A stretch of DNA of 64,000 bases from a virus: the IMG/VR virus record IMGVR_UViG_3300033183_000299, positions 43,508-107,507 of that record; one strand, 5' to 3'. Below are positions 27,954-44,448 of the stretch, one piece after another. Positions within the stretch are counted from its first letter, which is position 1. Each line of letters opens with the position of its first letter. Under the pieces are notes generated by a model. That model saw only the letters and a list, made by a program, of their open reading frames with translations. It was not told where the DNA came from and ran no database searches. The translations under genes were made by a program, and so were the position numbers.

Positions 27954-28730
27954 TTATTCGTCTTGCATAAAGGCTGCGAATGCTGCGTCTACGCTTTCTC
28001 CGGTTTTCTTTGTGAACTTTTGAGTCTCACTAGAAGATGACTCTGCCGAATTGTCGGAGGACAGATAACCATCCAGCAAAGTCTGTACTTCTTCAGTTGT
28101 CTTAACTTCAAACAAGTTGTCGATGTTAGGAACAGAGTCCAAAAGATCTTGACAGTCAGCAATATTATCATCACACAACACAGATGGTCGACGACGAGGC
28201 TGCAATGCTGTCTTAGGGAAGGAACCAGGTGTTCCTGGGATGGTATAAGTTAACTTAATATCTGTACCTGTTTGAGGGTCTGTGATGTCTCCATAATCAG
28301 GATCTAAAACATATCCCAAAAGGGTTTCGTAAGCAGTCTTACCATAAGCCCAGATTTTTACACCTTCAGACTCGCTTCCACGAACCAAGACAGGTGAATA
28401 ATAGCGTTTACGAGCAAACAACTTTTTTGCTTCATTCTTGAGATTTTGATCGTCACTTTCAACACCGTCACGCCATAATTTAGAGGCAAAGTCACAGATT
28501 GGACATTCACCACCGTCATTACGTTTGTTACAGTAGATCCCAGGGTTTTTTCCTACATTATAGTGGAAATGAAACTCACGGAACGGGTCACCATCTTGTG
28601 TAGGTAAGATTCGCACATGTTGAGTTCCTGCTTGAGGTTTCCACATGGTTGACTTACGTCCACCGGTAGCTTTGCCGCCGTTTTTTGATTGTTCGAGCTT
28701 TGCTCGCATTGCTTCAAGATTAATAGCCAT
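27954..28730 (-). CDS. single-stranded DNA-binding protein (T4 gp32-like)
   Basis: VRILP...HY...C...CPIC Zn site, RYY..V, YGK, DITDP..G.D; acidic tail. Confidence 0.85.
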   Translation of the reverse strand: MAINLEAMRAKLEQSKNGGKATGGRKSTMWKPQAGTQHVRILPTQDGDPFREFHFHYNVGKNPGIYCNKRNDGGECPICDFASKLWRDGVESDDQNLKNEAKKLFARKRYYSPVLVRGSESEGVKIWAYGKTAYETLLGYVLDPDYGDITDPQTGTDIKLTYTIPGTPGSFPKTALQPRRRPSVLCDDNIADCQDLLDSVPNIDNLFEVKTTEEVQTLLDGYLSSDNSAESSSSETQKFTKKTGESVDAAFAAFMQDE

Positions 28731-28824
28731 AATATACTCCATTGTTAGTCTATTTTATTGTGTTTTATCACTAAGGCAGGCAGGGTTTCAACCATACCCC
28801 CGTTGTAATTCGTTTTATATTATT

Positions 28825-28853
28825 AATATAACATATTCAAAAAGGTTTGTCAA
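28825..28853 (-). promoter_or_regulatory. sigma70-like promoter for ssb
   Basis: TTGACA-N17-TATATT. Confidence 0.8.
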
Positions 28854-28922
28854 GTAAAAAAAGTAAAAATTTCAAAAAATGGTCAAAAAAAAATTTTGAG
28901 GATTTTGGGTTTTTGAAAAAAA

Positions 28923-28959
28923 TAGGCGCTCTAGGATTTGAACCTAGGACCAACATCTA
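28923..28959 (-). pseudogene. tRNA-Ile2-derived remnant (T arm + 3' acceptor strand)
   Basis: TTGGTC CTAGG TTCAAAT CCTAG AGCGCCTA vs intact TTGGTC GCTGG TTCGAAT CCAGC AGCGCCTA. Confidence 0.8.
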
Positions 28960-28960
28960 T

Positions 28961-28989
28961 ATTATAACATAATCAAAATGGTTTGTCAA
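28961..28989 (-). promoter_or_regulatory. sigma70 consensus promoter directly upstream of the tRNA remnant
   Basis: TTGACA-N17-TATAAT, perfect. Confidence 0.85.
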
Positions 28990-29072
28990 GTAAAAAAGTA
29001 AAGTTTTTTTAAAAAAGTTTATGAAGAACTTCATATGTCCTCTACTTACTAATAGCGATGGAGGATAGTCGT

Positions 29073-29447
29073 ATGAAAAAATGTATTGTTTGTGAAAAAG
29101 AACTGGTTGGGCGCCAGACAAAATATTGCTCAAGCAAATGCAAAGGCAAAGATACAAATGTTAAGCACCAAAATTATCAAGCACAGCAAAAAAGAGGCAT
29201 AGAGAGAAGAACTCTATTGATTGATAAGCTTGGGGGGAAATGTTGTAAATGTGGGTACAATAGAAACTCTAGCGCTCTCGCCTTTCATCACACCGATGCT
29301 TCTAGCAAGTCTTTCCAAATTGATTTAAGACAGTGCTCTAACAGAAGCGAAAAGATCCTACTAGAAGAGGCAAAGAAATGCATACTAGTTTGTCACAACT
29401 GCCATGCTGAGATACATCACCCACATTTCAACATCAAAGAAGAATAG
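29073..29447 (+). CDS. HNH homing endonuclease
   Basis: CIVC..KYCSSKC Zn finger; CCKCG...FHH...KCILVCHNCHAEIH; GGAGG SD at 29060-29064; stop overlaps the 3' end of tRNA-Ile2. Confidence 0.85.
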   Translation: MKKCIVCEKELVGRQTKYCSSKCKGKDTNVKHQNYQAQQKRGIERRTLLIDKLGGKCCKCGYNRNSSALAFHHTDASSKSFQIDLRQCSNRSEKILLEEAKKCILVCHNCHAEIHHPHFNIKEE

Positions 29448-29517
29448 GCGCTGCTGGATTCGAACCAGCGACCAAGAATTTATGAGATTCCTGCGCTAAC
29501 CGCTGCGCCAAGCGCCC
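29445..29517 (-). tRNA. tRNA-Ile2/Met (anticodon CAT), most like Ile2
   Basis: 73-nt cloverleaf GGGCGCT...GGAAT CTCATAA ATTCT...GCTGG TTCGAAT CCAGC AGCGCCT A; CCA not encoded. Confidence 0.9.
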
Positions 29518-29555
29518 AAGGCTGCCTCCAAATTAATGGAGGCATTATAAAAGAC

Positions 29556-29879
29556 TTAAGCAGAGAAGGTCCTCCATTCTTTCAGCGAAGGAGCCTTAGA
29601 GCCAGGTCTTAACTCAAGGCAAAATTGAGCATAAGCATAGTGTTCGTCATCTGAGTCATTCTCATACTTGTGCCCATTTGTTTGTCCATTGTTTTCCAAC
29701 CTGTCTTGTTCTTCCGACCAGACTTCGTATTCTTCAATAAGATTGCTTAACTTTCTCACTTCAGAGCTGCATATAATCAAGGGTGCTTCCAGGTCTCTTA
29801 GTTTCTTGAGTTTGTTTACACTCAAATCAAATTTTTCCAAGATTTCTCCAAATTTTTGTATTTCTTCTGATAGATTCAT
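29556..29879 (-). CDS. hypothetical protein
   Basis: MNLSEEIQKF start with GGAGA SD; the longer ORF-track start runs through the tRNA remnant. Confidence 0.6.
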   Translation of the reverse strand: MNLSEEIQKFGEILEKFDLSVNKLKKLRDLEAPLIICSSEVRKLSNLIEEYEVWSEEQDRLENNGQTNGHKYENDSDDEHYAYAQFCLELRPGSKAPSLKEWRTFSA

Positions 29880-30016
29880 AGTTTTTTCTCCATTTTTCAA
29901 TTTTAATAATCTATGCTCTATAGTTTTTTTGGAGGTACCCACAGAAACCCTCTCATTTCTCCGTTCCTTAGCGACCCTGCTTCCATTATCAGAAATCAGA
30001 ACGAAAACATAAAAAA

Positions 30017-30054
30017 GTACACCCGACAGGATTCGAACCTGTGACCTAGTGTAC
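30017..30054 (-). pseudogene. tRNA-Arg-derived remnant / minihelix-like RNA
   Basis: GTACAC TAGGTC ACAGG TTCGAAT CCTGT CGG GTGTAC followed by T-run; matches the 3' end of the tRNA at 30775. Confidence 0.8.
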
Positions 30055-30059
30055 AATAT

Positions 30060-30088
30060 ATTATAACATAGTTTTGATAACTTGTCAA
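30060..30088 (-). promoter_or_regulatory. sigma70 consensus promoter directly upstream of the tRNA remnant
   Basis: TTGACA-N17-TATAAT, perfect; the -35 box overlaps the HNH stop. Confidence 0.85.
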
Positions 30089-30675
30089 GTATTTTTATAA
30101 GATTTTTGATATCTCTCTTTTCTGCAAGAATTTTTGTTTTTAGATTTGTAAGTCTCTAATTGAGAATCACAATTGTGACAGATTAGTCTGAGATTATTTC
30201 TCATATTGTTAGATGCTCGACCATCAATATGATCCAAGATAAAATTCAACTCTTTCCCATTCCACTCATTCTTCATTCCGCAAATATCACAACGCTCCGC
30301 CTGCTCTTTCAATATCCAAGGTTTTACAAAACGCATGTTTCTATCATTACAATATTCTTCTTGATTGCTTATGAAGTGAAGATATTTTTTTTGCCTTCTA
30401 TGTTCAGACGAACAAAAATGAGAGCAGAACTTGGCATTCTTGCTAGGGCTTTTAAATTCACTCTTACAATACATACATTCCTTATGTCTTCCTAGACCAG
30501 CATTGTGAGGTTTCCAGCCAGAAGGATTCTTCTGTCTTATTGGAAGGGTTATTCCCAACTTTTTAGAAACTTTTCTAATATATGCTCCAGAGACACCATA
30601 GAGTTTTCCGATTTTCTCATAAGATAGATTTTCTTCAAAGATCAGTTTTTCTAATTCTTCTTTTTTGTATTTCAT
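30085..30675 (-). CDS. HNH homing endonuclease with N-terminal HTH and Zn finger
   Basis: CDICG...LDHIDGRASNNMRNNLRLICHNCDSQ. Confidence 0.88.
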   Translation of the reverse strand: MKYKKEELEKLIFEENLSYEKIGKLYGVSGAYIRKVSKKLGITLPIRQKNPSGWKPHNAGLGRHKECMYCKSEFKSPSKNAKFCSHFCSSEHRRQKKYLHFISNQEEYCNDRNMRFVKPWILKEQAERCDICGMKNEWNGKELNFILDHIDGRASNNMRNNLRLICHNCDSQLETYKSKNKNSCRKERYQKSYKNT

Positions 30676-30710
30676 AACATTTCCTCCGCTATGAAATAAA
30701 TAGACTTAGA

Positions 30711-30765
30711 AAAAACATTTGAACCAATAAGCACCAAAAAAATAAGACAAACTTATTGGTTCAAA
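30711..30765 (-). terminator. 14-bp inverted repeat terminator after tRNA-Arg
   Basis: TTTGAACCAATAAG / CTTATTGGTTCAAA followed by TGTTTTTT. Confidence 0.65.
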
Positions 30766-30774
30766 TAATAGAAG

Positions 30775-30857
30775 TACACCAGGTAGGATTCGAACCTACG
30801 ATGGGAGTTACCCGTCGGCTTAGAAGGCCGATGCCATATCCACTAGGCGACTGGTGC
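30775..30857 (-). tRNA. tRNA-Arg (anticodon TCT) with 15-nt variable region
   Basis: GCACCAG/CTGGTGT acceptor, TCGGC CTTCTAA GCCGA anticodon arm, GTAGG TTCGAAT CCTAC T arm; 83 nt. Confidence 0.88.
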
Positions 30858-40459: not shown

Positions 40460-42067
40460 TTAGCCTCCTATTGTAATTTTTGATGTTTGTCTTGGAAATG
40501 GAAATAGATGCTCTTTTCCTTTGTATTCTGGATTTGAACTTGGCAACATTTTATATTTATCCCCATTTACCATGGCGTAGTTCTTAATTAGGTCTCCAGA
40601 TGCATAACTCATCTTAAAATCTAGAGAGAACACCTTTGGCCATAATCTTCCATCTTCTTCAAAGAACCCTGCTTCAAGGTCTATATCGATTCCAACATCC
40701 ATCAAAAATAATTGCAAAGAGTTTCTGTACATTGTTGCGAAGTCTGTCGCATAATAGGTTGTTGTACTTGGAGCTTCAATAAAAGAAGGGCAATAGACTC
40801 TAATGGAGTGTCTTTTTGGATCTCCATTTGTTGTCGTGGGTTCTTTCTTGAAGAACATTCTTACGAGATATTGTATTTTCGCACAGTTTGCTTTCGCCTC
40901 AGCTAAGTCAGCAGCAGGTGCAACAATTTTTATGGAGTAATCCAATGCTTCAAATGTAGTTTCTTTATCAAAATCCATTGGCTTGCCTAAGATGCGCGAT
41001 TTATCTCCATCAATTTTTGGTATATTGACTTTGTGATCTCTATTGAAGGATTCGACAAATCCTTTAAATGCTATCCACCTCTTTCTTTTACTGGAGGTAT
41101 CACTTAAGGAGTCTGGCCCAACATTCTCAGCAACATTGAGTGAGAGGAATAAAAGTGAGCTCTTGTTCGCACTTCTAGTTCCATGAAATGAATAATCTAA
41201 CTTGTTTAATGAATCTGTATCGAAATCATAAACAGACCCTACGCTATACTCGGCATGATCTTTAGTATTAACAAGTAGTCCGAAAGGAAATCTACCATTG
41301 TCTCCCTCGACATAATGCCCACTATCTTTGAAGGCATATAATGGTCTCGCTACATTCCCACCAAGCTTTGCAAGTCTATTTAGTTTCTCTCCGGTAAACT
41401 CTACTCCGAAATTTAACTTCAAAGAAAGCTTTATGTTTTTTGGGAAAAGAAAGGATCCAAGCTTTTTGTCCGTAACGTCATCATAGTCAAAGAAACCTGC
41501 TTCCAAATCTGGCTCATAATTAACGGAATCAATATAGCAAAGAAATCCATTCTTCATTAAAGAATCATAGTTGATAGTTTGCGGCGACGGGTAGTTATCA
41601 TAGTTATTCCCGGAGTGAATAAGGTTCTTCAACCAAACAGAGAAGTATGTATTCTTTGTTCCATAGAATGCATCTACTTGTTTTGGGCCTCCAAGTGGAG
41701 CGATTAGTCTTTGAATCTCTTCAATCTTAGCTATATTATTTCTTGATTCATTAACCGAATGAGCAGGTAAGTTTATTGTTATGTCAAAGCTTAAGTCTGA
41801 TGAATTTTCGGTATACGTGTGAGATTGCTTATCTGATTCTTTACCAACCTCAGTTTCTTTTGTTAAATTAAGCTTGTATGATTCCACAAAAGCTTTAAAG
41901 GAAACGAGTCTCTGCAATGCTGGAGATCCAATATAAAGTATGTTGTCTGTCTGATCAGTTATGTCTGAGCCATATCCTCTAAAGGTTCTATTGCCGTTTT
42001 TGTAAGTCGCACCTTGTTTGATATCTGATAGGTGATATGGTGAAAAGAAACCTGGTTCAATAGCCAT
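40460..42067 (-). CDS. tail-tube initiator/baseplate protein with two tube-like domains
   Basis: Internal repeat VSFKAFVESY / IAFKGFVESF; DLEAGFF occurs twice; follows the tape measure gene. Confidence 0.55.
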   Translation of the reverse strand: MAIEPGFFSPYHLSDIKQGATYKNGNRTFRGYGSDITDQTDNILYIGSPALQRLVSFKAFVESYKLNLTKETEVGKESDKQSHTYTENSSDLSFDITINLPAHSVNESRNNIAKIEEIQRLIAPLGGPKQVDAFYGTKNTYFSVWLKNLIHSGNNYDNYPSPQTINYDSLMKNGFLCYIDSVNYEPDLEAGFFDYDDVTDKKLGSFLFPKNIKLSLKLNFGVEFTGEKLNRLAKLGGNVARPLYAFKDSGHYVEGDNGRFPFGLLVNTKDHAEYSVGSVYDFDTDSLNKLDYSFHGTRSANKSSLLFLSLNVAENVGPDSLSDTSSKRKRWIAFKGFVESFNRDHKVNIPKIDGDKSRILGKPMDFDKETTFEALDYSIKIVAPAADLAEAKANCAKIQYLVRMFFKKEPTTTNGDPKRHSIRVYCPSFIEAPSTTTYYATDFATMYRNSLQLFLMDVGIDIDLEAGFFEEDGRLWPKVFSLDFKMSYASGDLIKNYAMVNGDKYKMLPSSNPEYKGKEHLFPFPRQTSKITIGG

Positions 42068-44448
42068 TATCCTGCTCTCCCAATAACTGCCTTAGCTTCT
42101 GTTCTTATTATATCTCGAAGCTCTCTGTCTCCGATATATACTTTGACACTAATATCAGGCATTTTCATTTCAGGCATCTTAACGTCTACGACGAGTTTTC
42201 CTTCACTGATATTTTTAATCATTCCTTCGGAACCCATGATGAAAGATGAGTTTGTACCATCTGTGGTCATTGCGAGAAATCCATCGATCTTAACCGTTGA
42301 TAATTCCATAAGAACTGATTTAACTTTTTCTAATCCGCTAGCTATCGCTGACGTATCTATGCTGGCAGCGGCTTGGATATCCATGGCTTTTCCGCCTGGA
42401 TGTGCTGCGTCATAAACATTGCTCATTTCGTCAGAAAGAGCACTTAATTCTCCTCTAGCGCCGGAAGCATCTTTGCCCATTCTTGTGAACGTAGGGCCCA
42501 AGTCTTTATCGAACATTCCTTCGGCCATCGAACGAGAACCAGGTTTGTGGATAATATCCCACAGTTGACTCAAGGCTCCTACGAAAGCAATAATGCCGGC
42601 AATAGCCCATCCAACAGGAGTTAACATGCCTGCAATACTCGCGCCTACTGCTCCGAATTTGACTGCTAATGCTCCGAGAAAAACGACCGTAGGCGCAATC
42701 ACAGCAACAAACTTTACAACATACGCTATGAGAGGAGTAATAAAGGAAATAAATTTGGCAATCATCATAATAACAGGGCTAAAGGCTAAAAACAATTCCG
42801 TAACGGCTAGCTTCAGCTGAGTCATAAATGGTACTAAACTTTCTGTCGCATCAGAAAGTTCTTTTTGGATATCTGCTTGTTGTTTTTGGCCTTTCTCGTA
42901 TTGTTGATATTCCGCCATACTCATATTTAATAACTTCTGAGCCTCAGCTACATCCTTCACTCCCATTGCTTGGGCGATGTATTGTTTTGTATATTTGTCG
43001 AGAGAGTCAAAGTTCCCAACAGACATTTGAACTTGTTGCTTTAACATTAATATTCTCTCGGAATCTGTGGCTTGCATCATTTCAAGAGTCGAAAGTTGCG
43101 TACCAAGCACTGCGTTTAATTTAGCGGCAGATTCTGCCGCGGAATCAAACTTGTCAAACTTCTCTGTAATTCCAAGAAGTGTTTGCATTTCAATACCCGA
43201 TGCTTTAGCTGCAGCCGCAAGTTCTTTAAAAACTTTGATATTGTTTTTTCCATATATTGCTAAACGACCAGAAGCAGAATTGAAGTCTTCAATCATCTTA
43301 GTGCCGGTAATTCCAATTTCCTTGCCCATTCGCGCAAGTTGAGCTGTGGCATCGGCTGCCTGCTCTCCAGTCATGCCCATGGATCTTTGCATATGCTCCA
43401 TTGATTTAACTGAAGAGGCAGCAGAAACCCCAAGCTTCTCCAGTCTTGCGACAGTCAGTCCCATATATTCGTTTGTTTTTTCTGATTTTGGATTAAAAGA
43501 AGACAACCCCTGCGTCAAAGCTTTCAAGGCCTCGGCAGACTCTCTGAATCCAATACCGGCCATGTTTCCTTGTTTCGCCATTCTTGTAATTTCTTCATTG
43601 AATTGATCGCCAAAGCCGGTTGCTGCGCCCAATTGTTTAGATAAATTGTTCACCTCCAAACCCATTTTTACAATTACCCCAATGAAAGCTACCCCAGCTA
43701 GTACCGCGGCAACGCTCCCCTTAGCAAATTTTTCTGAACCCTCTAAGAAAAATTTGCTAGTTTTCAACATGCCTTCGCCTATTTTCCCACCGGTTTTAAG
43801 GCCTATCTTTCCAATGAAACTTCCAAATTTTTCCATGTTGTTTGTGACTTTAAAAGTTTTCGAAAGTAAATCGCCGACAACAGGTAATTTACCAGCATAA
43901 TCCCCTAGGATGTCAAATACATCTTCTTGTCTTTCTTCCATATCTTTCATGGAATCCTTGTTTTTGTCTATCTGCTCGCCAATTTTTTCTAATAAAGCTT
44001 TTTGCTTTTTAAGCTTCTCTTCGGTTTCGTTCATGCTTTTTTCAGCATCCGAGACCATCTTTTTTCTTTCTTCTCTTTGCGCTACTAGTGCGTTTCTTTG
44101 TTTTTTTAGGGTTTCAAGGAGATCTTCTTCTTCTGCTGATGTAAGACCTTCTTGGGACTTCTTTCTTAGGGACGCTATTTCCTTAACTATAGAGCTGTAT
44201 TCTTCTTGAAGCTTATTGTTTTCTTCTAAAATTTTGTTTAGTTTTTCTTGCTTTTTTATTCGTTCAGCTAGATACCTCTCTTCTCTTTCTTCTGCATCTT
44301 TGCGAGAGTTTATCAGCCTCTCTTCTCTTTCTTCCTGTTCTTTTAGTAGCTTGTTGTATTCTTCTTGAGAAACTCTTTTTTTCTTCAAGAGTTCCAATAC
44401 TTCTTTAGCTATCTCGGATTCATTGTTTGTTGGTTCATCAGTAGCCAT
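42067..44448 (-). CDS. tape measure protein
   Basis: Long helical, Ala/Gly-rich protein with hydrophobic stretches; follows the tail chaperone. Confidence 0.75.
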   Translation of the reverse strand: MATDEPTNNESEIAKEVLELLKKKRVSQEEYNKLLKEQEEREERLINSRKDAEEREERYLAERIKKQEKLNKILEENNKLQEEYSSIVKEIASLRKKSQEGLTSAEEEDLLETLKKQRNALVAQREERKKMVSDAEKSMNETEEKLKKQKALLEKIGEQIDKNKDSMKDMEERQEDVFDILGDYAGKLPVVGDLLSKTFKVTNNMEKFGSFIGKIGLKTGGKIGEGMLKTSKFFLEGSEKFAKGSVAAVLAGVAFIGVIVKMGLEVNNLSKQLGAATGFGDQFNEEITRMAKQGNMAGIGFRESAEALKALTQGLSSFNPKSEKTNEYMGLTVARLEKLGVSAASSVKSMEHMQRSMGMTGEQAADATAQLARMGKEIGITGTKMIEDFNSASGRLAIYGKNNIKVFKELAAAAKASGIEMQTLLGITEKFDKFDSAAESAAKLNAVLGTQLSTLEMMQATDSERILMLKQQVQMSVGNFDSLDKYTKQYIAQAMGVKDVAEAQKLLNMSMAEYQQYEKGQKQQADIQKELSDATESLVPFMTQLKLAVTELFLAFSPVIMMIAKFISFITPLIAYVVKFVAVIAPTVVFLGALAVKFGAVGASIAGMLTPVGWAIAGIIAFVGALSQLWDIIHKPGSRSMAEGMFDKDLGPTFTRMGKDASGARGELSALSDEMSNVYDAAHPGGKAMDIQAAASIDTSAIASGLEKVKSVLMELSTVKIDGFLAMTTDGTNSSFIMGSEGMIKNISEGKLVVDVKMPEMKMPDISVKVYIGDRELRDIIRTEAKAVIGRAG

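Follow-up and report, generated by a model that had tools for sequence, protein, structure and literature searches.

A promoter-linked tRNA-Arg 3' fragment in an uncultured virus: probable scar of a homing-endonuclease cassette that brought its own tRNA

We analysed a stretch of 64,000 nucleotides (the window; positions 43,508 to 107,507) of the virus record IMGVR_UViG_3300033183_000299, which is 184 kb long and comes from an uncultured virus. On the minus strand of this window, between positions 30088 and 30011, a consensus promoter is followed by the T arm and 3' acceptor strand of a tRNA gene that has no body. We consider it highly probable that this element once formed the 3' end of the native tRNA-Arg(UCU) gene of the phage and was stranded by a homing-endonuclease cassette that carries a replacement tRNA, a terminator and a promoter. 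The remnant is thus most likely the scar of an invasion and not a purpose-built small RNA. The original prediction had offered two interpretations, a deletion scar kept as an attenuator or a promoter-driven mimic of the tRNA elbow and acceptor; a scar it does appear to be, its T arm and acceptor strand being identical to the native tRNA-Arg 3' end of the closest relative, but one created by insertion and replacement rather than by simple deletion.

Direct reading of the minus strand reproduced the predicted string of promoter, spacer, T arm and U-tract exactly. The sigma70-type promoter (TTGACA-N17-TGnTATAAT, 30060-30088, also returned by motif scans) consists of TTGACA at 30088-30083, a 17-nt spacer with TG at -15/-14, and TATAAT at 30065-30060. 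It is followed by the end of the cassette (30049-30059), made up of ATATT and GTACAC (30054-30049), the latter being the 5' strand of a closing stem. The remnant itself (30017-30048) comprises variable loop, T arm, 3' acceptor strand, A73 and a C, and reads TAGGTC (30048-30043), the intact T arm at 30026-30042 with its conserved T-loop sequence (ACAGG, 30042-30038; TTCGAAT, 30037-30031; CCTGT, 30030-30026), CGG (30025-30023) and GTGTAC (30022-30017). TTTTTT follows at 30016-30011; this T6 is the native 3' trailer of the ancestral tRNA-Arg, since relatives have the same T-runs, and lies outside the cassette.

The pattern of promoter and T arm is real and far beyond chance. A perfect TTGACA-N17-TATAAT occurs twice in the 64 kb (0.04 expected), both times immediately 5' of a tRNA 3' fragment, and all four occurrences of the exact T-loop motif GGTTCRAATCC in the window fall inside the same 2 kb. 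A repeat search grouped the four tRNA 3' ends into one family (D1) in a single register; they are 61-78% identical and so are not identical att-type repeats. ARAGORN called no tRNA at the fragment (30011-30054), its calls being restricted to a tRNA-Met (29444-29518) and a tRNA-Arg(UCU) (30774-30857). Rfam returned no family for the remnant; its tRNA model reached 16 bits (E = 9.7, across promoter and remnant) against a gathering score of 29 bits.

To the 5' side of the promoter on the same strand lies the rest of the cassette. The replacement tRNA-Arg(UCU) (30775-30857; 84 nt in the ARAGORN call; Rfam tRNA score 60.2 bits) has a variable arm of 15 nt. A repeat search placed a terminator-like hairpin downstream of it (30710-30766), in which a perfect 15-bp inverted repeat (30752-30766 and 30717-30731) is followed by G and T6. 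HNH-1 (30085-30675) encodes a putative HNH (His-Me) endonuclease of 196 aa with an N-terminal region resembling a helix-turn-helix (PHROG HNH, E = 1e-17), and its TGA stop codon sits within the -35 hexamer of the promoter.

Relatives lacking this arrangement were found by using the single-stranded DNA-binding protein (SSB) gene as an anchor, which gave 251 related loci. In the closest of them, L005 (SSB 95% identical), tRNA-Met starts 5 nt after tRNA-Arg and leads into the intergenic sequence that the window also has; neither an HNH gene nor a promoter is present. Intact tRNA-Arg genes at empty sites were present in L005, L040, L066 and L019, and the promoter was absent from the empty sites. 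The remnant in the window, from GGTC through GTGTAC, is identical to the tRNA-Arg of L005 and L040. Of 28 SSB-linked loci in which ARAGORN found a tRNA-Arg upstream of the SSB gene, L012 alone contained the module of promoter and remnant. The association with a tRNA-HNH cassette that had been proposed was borne out.

A pattern scan recovered further copies of the cassette in L090, L091 (on the same contig as L012), L095 and L096. The junction was uniform: in the window, L090, L091 and L095/L096 the -10 box is followed by (A)ATATT and [G/A]T[A/G]CAC(TA), joined to GGTC. To the right of this point, T stem, acceptor strand and downstream flank follow the local lineage, being of the L005/L040 type in the window and L091, of the L066/L067 type in L090 and of the L019/L036 type in L095/L096. 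L090 also retains the 5' half of an L066-type tRNA-Arg, which ends at CTTC of the anticodon loop and is followed by the cassette and then the 3' remnant, so that just 9 nt of the old gene are missing. In the other three backgrounds the resident tRNA has been replaced almost entirely. The two halves kept in L090 and the flanks of the local lineages are direct evidence that the cassette entered a resident tRNA-Arg gene and then spread by recombination into several backgrounds.

The interiors of the copies are 74-80% identical to one another. HNH-1 is intact in the window and in L090 (212 aa) and is frameshifted or truncated in L095/L096; the cassette of L091 carries a different HNH gene and a promoter variant. 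The terminator hairpin between replacement tRNA and HNH-1 is kept in L090 and L095/L096. An odd type of tRNA-Arg allele with a long variable arm stands beside HNH-1 in L095/L096 and occurs without HNH gene or remnant in L011, L020 and L023, which may reflect loss by recombination between direct repeats or may mark donor loci. Metagenome joints at 30047->30816 and 28953->29480 resemble cassette-free tRNA genes, although these were weak matches at 85% stringency with short sides. A separate observation concerns L010, where the tRNA-Arg at 1914-1988 looks chimeric, its canonical 5' end GCACTCGTAGCTCAGC being fused to the odd ATGGTGAAAGGGATATCA allele of L012/L041; this may be another recombination scar at the same hotspot. 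The idea of a split tRNA, whose 3' half would be joined in trans, was dropped, as 9 nt of the body are missing in L090 and no 5' half is present in the window or in L095/L096.

The HNH-1 family is tied to tRNA-Arg genes well beyond this lineage. All 19 full-length homologues (51-60% aa identity, in other large phages) begin approximately 75-170 nt after a tRNA-Arg(UCU)-like gene; 17 of these tRNA genes were identified by ARAGORN and two (L101 and L111) were read by eye. Several of the linked tRNAs carry long or expanded variable arms. A crAss-like homologue likewise lies within a tRNA cluster, adjoining tRNA-Arg. In an unrelated phage contig of 362 kb, a stranded T arm and acceptor 3' strand (L105:2089-2125) come right after the stop codon of the HNH-1 homologue, with no promoter and no 5' complement. 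The unit of tRNA-Arg and HNH gene is old and widespread, and the promoter is a feature of the cassettes of this lineage.

Three further observations concern these tRNAs and their surroundings. Endonuclease-linked tRNA-Arg(UCU) alleles (window, L095, L096, L011, L020, L023 and L107-L110) have class-II-like variable arms of 15-18 nt or odd bodies, and these features may confer immunity to the nuclease or to a tRNA-cleaving defence of the host. Both phage tRNAs in the window have a G1-U72 wobble pair and no encoded CCA. One arm of the hairpin at 30710-30766 holds TTGGTTCAAAT, a T-loop-like box that recurs upstream of distant HNH-1 homologues, and a similar TTGGTTCG(A)AT box is found upstream of all of them; these boxes could be an operator or a mimic of the target.

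We propose the following course of events. The cassette inserted itself into the resident tRNA-Arg gene, at its anticodon region, and in doing so destroyed the presumed target of the nuclease. From 5' to 3' on the minus strand it comprises the divergent tRNA-Arg(UCU), the 15-bp terminator hairpin, the HNH gene and the consensus early-type promoter. HNH-1 probably cuts cassette-free tRNA-Arg genes near the boundary of anticodon stem and variable loop, a site suggested by the fixed junction and by the recipient's own sequence being kept to the right of it. Repair would then copy the cassette by means of upstream homology on the left and the remnant of approximately 32 nt (T arm and acceptor strand) on the right, and the remnant could in turn provide right-hand homology for recombination into any phage bearing a tRNA-Arg gene. 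The carried tRNA would maintain the supply of tRNA-Arg(UCU), and its divergent body, together with the expanded variable arm of several alleles, presumably makes it uncuttable. As the cassette contains a strong terminator hairpin, the promoter at its exit would serve to restore downstream transcription, restarting early transcription of ORF108 (ORF, open reading frame) and tRNA-Met past the cassette's own terminator, and the remnant would form the first ~40 nt of that transcript.

Acceptor-T-arm minihelices and viral tRNA-like structures are known kinds of tRNA mimic. The remnant resembles them in its genuine T arm and 3' acceptor strand; it differs in having no continuous acceptor/T helix, a paired discriminator, no CCA and no conservation apart from the parent tRNA. 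RNAfold did reproduce the predicted hairpin with its outer 6-bp stem (-14.1 kcal/mol, z = -2.9 against shuffles), but this stem is not an acceptor stem in the register of a tRNA. Its pairs take in tRNA positions 69-74, among them the discriminator A73 and the C that opens the trailer, and an internal loop of 6 x 3 nt stands between it and the T stem, with the register shifted by two and no 7-bp acceptor stacking. No single-stranded discriminator or NCCA end was found in the remnant, as A73 and the next C lie inside the stem and no CCA is encoded. With positions 69-74 paired, the internal loop in between and no encoded CCA, the structure is not an acceptor/T minihelix.

These features bear directly on the proposal that an RNA of ~45 nt, running from promoter to U-tract and exposing a T arm and a helical end, serves either to decoy host defences that sense or cleave tRNAs or as a molecule to be charged or extended with CCA. 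In the window, L090 and L091, promoter, hairpin and U6 could indeed yield a short RNA; the T loop is complete, and phage tRNA loci take part in the evasion of tRNA-cleaving defences (PMC13096335). However, such a mimic would lack the 12-bp coaxial acceptor-T helix, no cassette-free relative has the element, its U-tract is missing in L095/L096 and its stem is missing at the second locus described below. It also contains neither an anticodon loop nor a complete variable region, which are the sites cut by known tRNA-cleaving defences. Septu cleaves the variable loop of tRNAs (PMC13096335). We therefore regard a functional mimic as very improbable. There is only a slim chance that, in phages with a U-run trailer, an abundant RNA of ~45 nt has been co-opted as a decoy for host factors that recognise the T loop or elbow or for tRNA-directed defences, or that it titrates the cassette's nuclease.

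Covariation across relatives, suggested in the original prediction as a check on such an RNA, also failed to favour it. The pairs of the closing stem were read directly in the four distinct cassette sequences, as MAFFT had placed GTGCAC of L091 out of register with GTACAC. The 5' strand varies between GTACAC (window), ATACAC (L090 and L095/L096) and GTGCAC (L091). These changes are one-sided against an invariant tRNA end, and no compensatory change was found in the closing stem among the four sequences. The covariation in the T stem (ACAGG/CCTGT versus GCAGG/CCTGC) is that of the resident tRNA alleles, from which it was inherited.

A role as leader or attenuator has more to be said for it, though we still think it unlikely. 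Here the scar and GTACAC would have been recruited as a 5' stem-loop that stabilises the transcript of ORF108 and tRNA-Met or that, together with U6, attenuates it and ends read-through from HNH-1. The probable transcription start, G30054, is the sixth nucleotide after the -10 box and the first base of the stem, so that the RNA would begin flush with the hairpin; the closing stem folds in all four Arg cassettes (-12.7 to -14.1 kcal/mol); and one family promoter, at position 40959 of the genome, likewise precedes a hairpin and T-run just before a gene. Against this, the stem varies on one side only, and GTGCAC of L091 is two substitutions away from the canonical anticodon-stem strand GCGGAC, which itself pairs at 4 of 6 positions. 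The second cassette has no closing stem, and 21 of the 25 promoters of the family are followed by a short leader without a strong 5' hairpin and then a ribosome-binding site (RBS), so that such a hairpin is not a general design in this phage.

The attenuator in particular was not upheld. The hairpin does lie directly 5' of U6, but its outer stem is A/U-rich, it encloses a large internal structure, and a scan for consensus terminators made no call. The U-tract derives from the ancestral trailer, and in L095/L096 CACTTTC stands in its place. In many relatives a T-run comes after an intact tRNA-Arg gene, and in the arrays of L038 and L066 such runs lie between tRNAs that are transcribed together. 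Between 30060 and ORF108/tRNA-Met no promoter other than that of the cassette was found, and an efficient terminator at T6 would be expected to silence both genes.

The cassette promoter is one of 25 members of a family in this genome that is 85-98% conserved across relatives. It is 98% identical to the copy in L090, compared with 74.5% for the HNH open reading frames. Outside the window, family promoters at approximately 40900-40990 and 180560-180650 of the genome are accompanied by a hairpin and T-run that follow or embrace the promoter, in one case right before the RBS and start codon. In the tRNA clusters of other phages, on the unrelated viral contigs L085 and L087, a tRNA T arm comes no more than 25 nt after a consensus promoter, and these may be further junctions of promoter and tRNA fragment. 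No sequencing run contained as much as half of the sampled words, and in RNA runs the share was at most 9%; the runs were examined as contigs, in which RNA ends, strand and level cannot be read. The high depth in the 30005-30091 bin reflects the many phages that share promoter and T arm and is not evidence of expression.

A second cassette, unrelated to the first, has made the same kind of replacement at the neighbouring tRNA(CAU) gene, as judged by sequence. It consists of an intact tRNA(CAU) (tRNA-Met; 29445-29517, minus strand; Rfam 65.7 bits), identical to the L010 allele, and HNH-2 (29058-29447, plus strand; PHROG HNH, E = 7e-19), which is unrelated to HNH-1 and whose stop codon overlaps the tRNA-Met 3' end by 3 nt. 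At its right end, the locus at 28916-28989 repeats the series of promoter, remnant and T-run seen at the Arg locus: a second perfect promoter (28961-28989, minus strand) precedes the remnant of the ancestral tRNA(CAU) with its variable loop, T arm, acceptor 3' strand and A73, followed by a native T7 (28916-28953, minus strand). Alignment placed this remnant exactly at the ancestral tRNA 3' end, with the T arm of the L031 allele and the downstream flank of L005/L010. It has no 5' complement and no closing stem, and its fold did not rise above shuffles (z = -1.1). Two loci with the same pattern do argue against chance, as had been proposed, but what they have in common is the mechanism of insertion and not a minihelix.

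Since promoters form the right ends of both cassettes, one may ask whether the HNH genes are mere passengers of another mechanism, either recombination between repeated early promoters, as in PeSL cassettes, or integrase-type insertion at a tRNA 3' end. The size and conservation of the promoter family would suit this, and metagenome contigs join the promoter to many contexts, although these joints are weak and of low stringency. We nevertheless consider non-HNH mobility most improbable: the open reading frame list, Pfam and PHROG revealed no integrase or recombinase in or beside either cassette, the tRNA repeats are too diverged (61-78%) to be identical att-type sites, the HNH-1 family keeps its tie to tRNA-Arg(UCU) in distant phages without this promoter, and the left junction lies within the tRNA and not at a promoter.

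Several points weigh against the interpretation as a homing scar. Nuclease activity, target site and homing of HNH-1 and HNH-2 are putative. None of the four Arg cassettes, L091 included, has lost the 5' complement [G/A]T[A/G]CAC, and it always forms at least five pairs with GTGTAC, which could reflect selection for the hairpin. Both cassettes end with a promoter cut approximately 6-13 nt from the -10 box and abutting the remnant, and this neat abutment is unexplained by a pure-scar model. Finally, no decayed remnants were found, though the search patterns required an intact T arm and so could not have detected them.

On the minus strand, the order across the region is tRNA-Arg, hairpin and T-run, HNH-1, promoter, Arg remnant and T6, ORF108, tRNA-Met and HNH-2 on the opposite strand. 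Beyond HNH-2 come the second perfect promoter, the Met remnant and T7, conserved intergenic DNA with a promoter of its own (28825-28853) and the gp32-type SSB gene, which together with this native promoter occupies 27954-28853 on the minus strand (Pfam gp32, E = 4e-15). ORF108 (29556-29882, minus strand) is the native downstream neighbour of the Arg remnant. Its true start is the ATG at 29882 behind GGAGAAAAAAC, and an open reading frame of 166 aa that overlaps the remnant is an artefact. A homologue (35% identical) lies downstream of the L096 remnant; a pattern scan of viral contigs gave no relatives of ORF108, and it had no Pfam or PHROG match. Unlike PHROG, Pfam reported no HNH domain for HNH-1 or HNH-2 at E < 0.01. 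blastn against a phage collection gave generic tRNA matches only. An identity as a T4-like cyanomyovirus was dropped: no cultured phage has an SSB more than 36% identical to this one, the best match being Microcystis phage Mel-JY01 (36%), followed by Flavobacterium and Bacillus phages.

The closest parallel among phages is SegB of T4, a homing endonuclease of the tRNA cluster that recognises the T-loop-coding DNA of tRNA genes (PMC2330249). Common to both systems are a free-standing homing-endonuclease gene in a phage tRNA cluster, a tRNA-coding target, co-inherited tRNAs and polymorphism of presence and absence (PMC2330249; PMC13096335). SegB, however, is a GIY-YIG enzyme, whereas the proteins here are putative enzymes of the HNH type. 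An overwritten tRNA that is supplied with its own replacement, a stranded 3' remnant and an exit promoter were not reported for SegB (PMC2330249).

In fungal mitochondria, mobile endonuclease open reading frames bring in a foreign 3' end and leave the native one stranded, still identical to that of relatives (PMC3630166). The examples (atp6 of Allomyces; atp6, atp9, cox2 and nad3 of Glomus; PMC3630166) share with our cassettes the divergent inserted 3' end, the endonuclease open reading frame and the stranded native 3' end. They differ in that the gene invaded here is a phage tRNA gene rather than an organelle protein gene, a promoter is carried along and, in three of four backgrounds, nearly the whole tRNA is replaced.

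Two other kinds of element invite comparison. Integrase-driven prophages and genomic islands leave partial tRNA copies at attL and attR. As in those duplications, the 3' part of a tRNA is found here on both sides of an insert that restores the gene, but no integrase is present, the repeats have diverged, and the insert of ~0.8 kb has a nuclease gene only. PeSL cassettes of T4-type phages (PMC2839356, PMC4122927) resemble the present ones in a conserved, many-copy sigma70-type early promoter with AT-rich upstream sequence, in bordering variable modules and in having a stem-loop. In PeSL the stem-loop precedes the promoter and terminates upstream transcription (PMC2839356), whereas here the hairpin lies 3' of the promoter and is a tRNA relic; moreover, this phage is not demonstrably of the T4 type. 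Membership in the PeSL group was rejected on account of the reversed order of stem-loop and promoter.

Many relatives, though not the window, also have a tRNA-shaped RNA of 84-87 nt that lies ~200 nt upstream of the SSB gene (e.g. L019:5717-5800). It has an acceptor stem of 6-7 bp, a D-like hairpin, a long 'anticodon' stem with a variable loop of 14-20 nt and a normal T arm. RNAalifold gave 27 pairs, five of them with compensatory changes. ARAGORN made no call for it, and Rfam had no match at E <= 1. Besides L019, it is present in L015, L020, L022-24, L030, L032, L036, L039, L049, L051, L052, L055, L056, L062-67 and L070.

A scar with a carried promoter accounts better for the element than a promoter-driven tRNA mimic does, and no new class of RNA needs to be invoked. 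The findings point to an HNH family that needs no intron to invade an essential-type gene, as it carries along a divergent replacement tRNA, in some cases with a class-II-like variable arm; in the lineage studied here, the cassette also brings a terminator and an exit promoter. The logic of SegB and of the fungal mobile open reading frames would thereby be extended to the replacement of a whole tRNA. This offers an explanation for the oddly shaped tRNAs and the pseudo-tRNA fragments in phage tRNA clusters.

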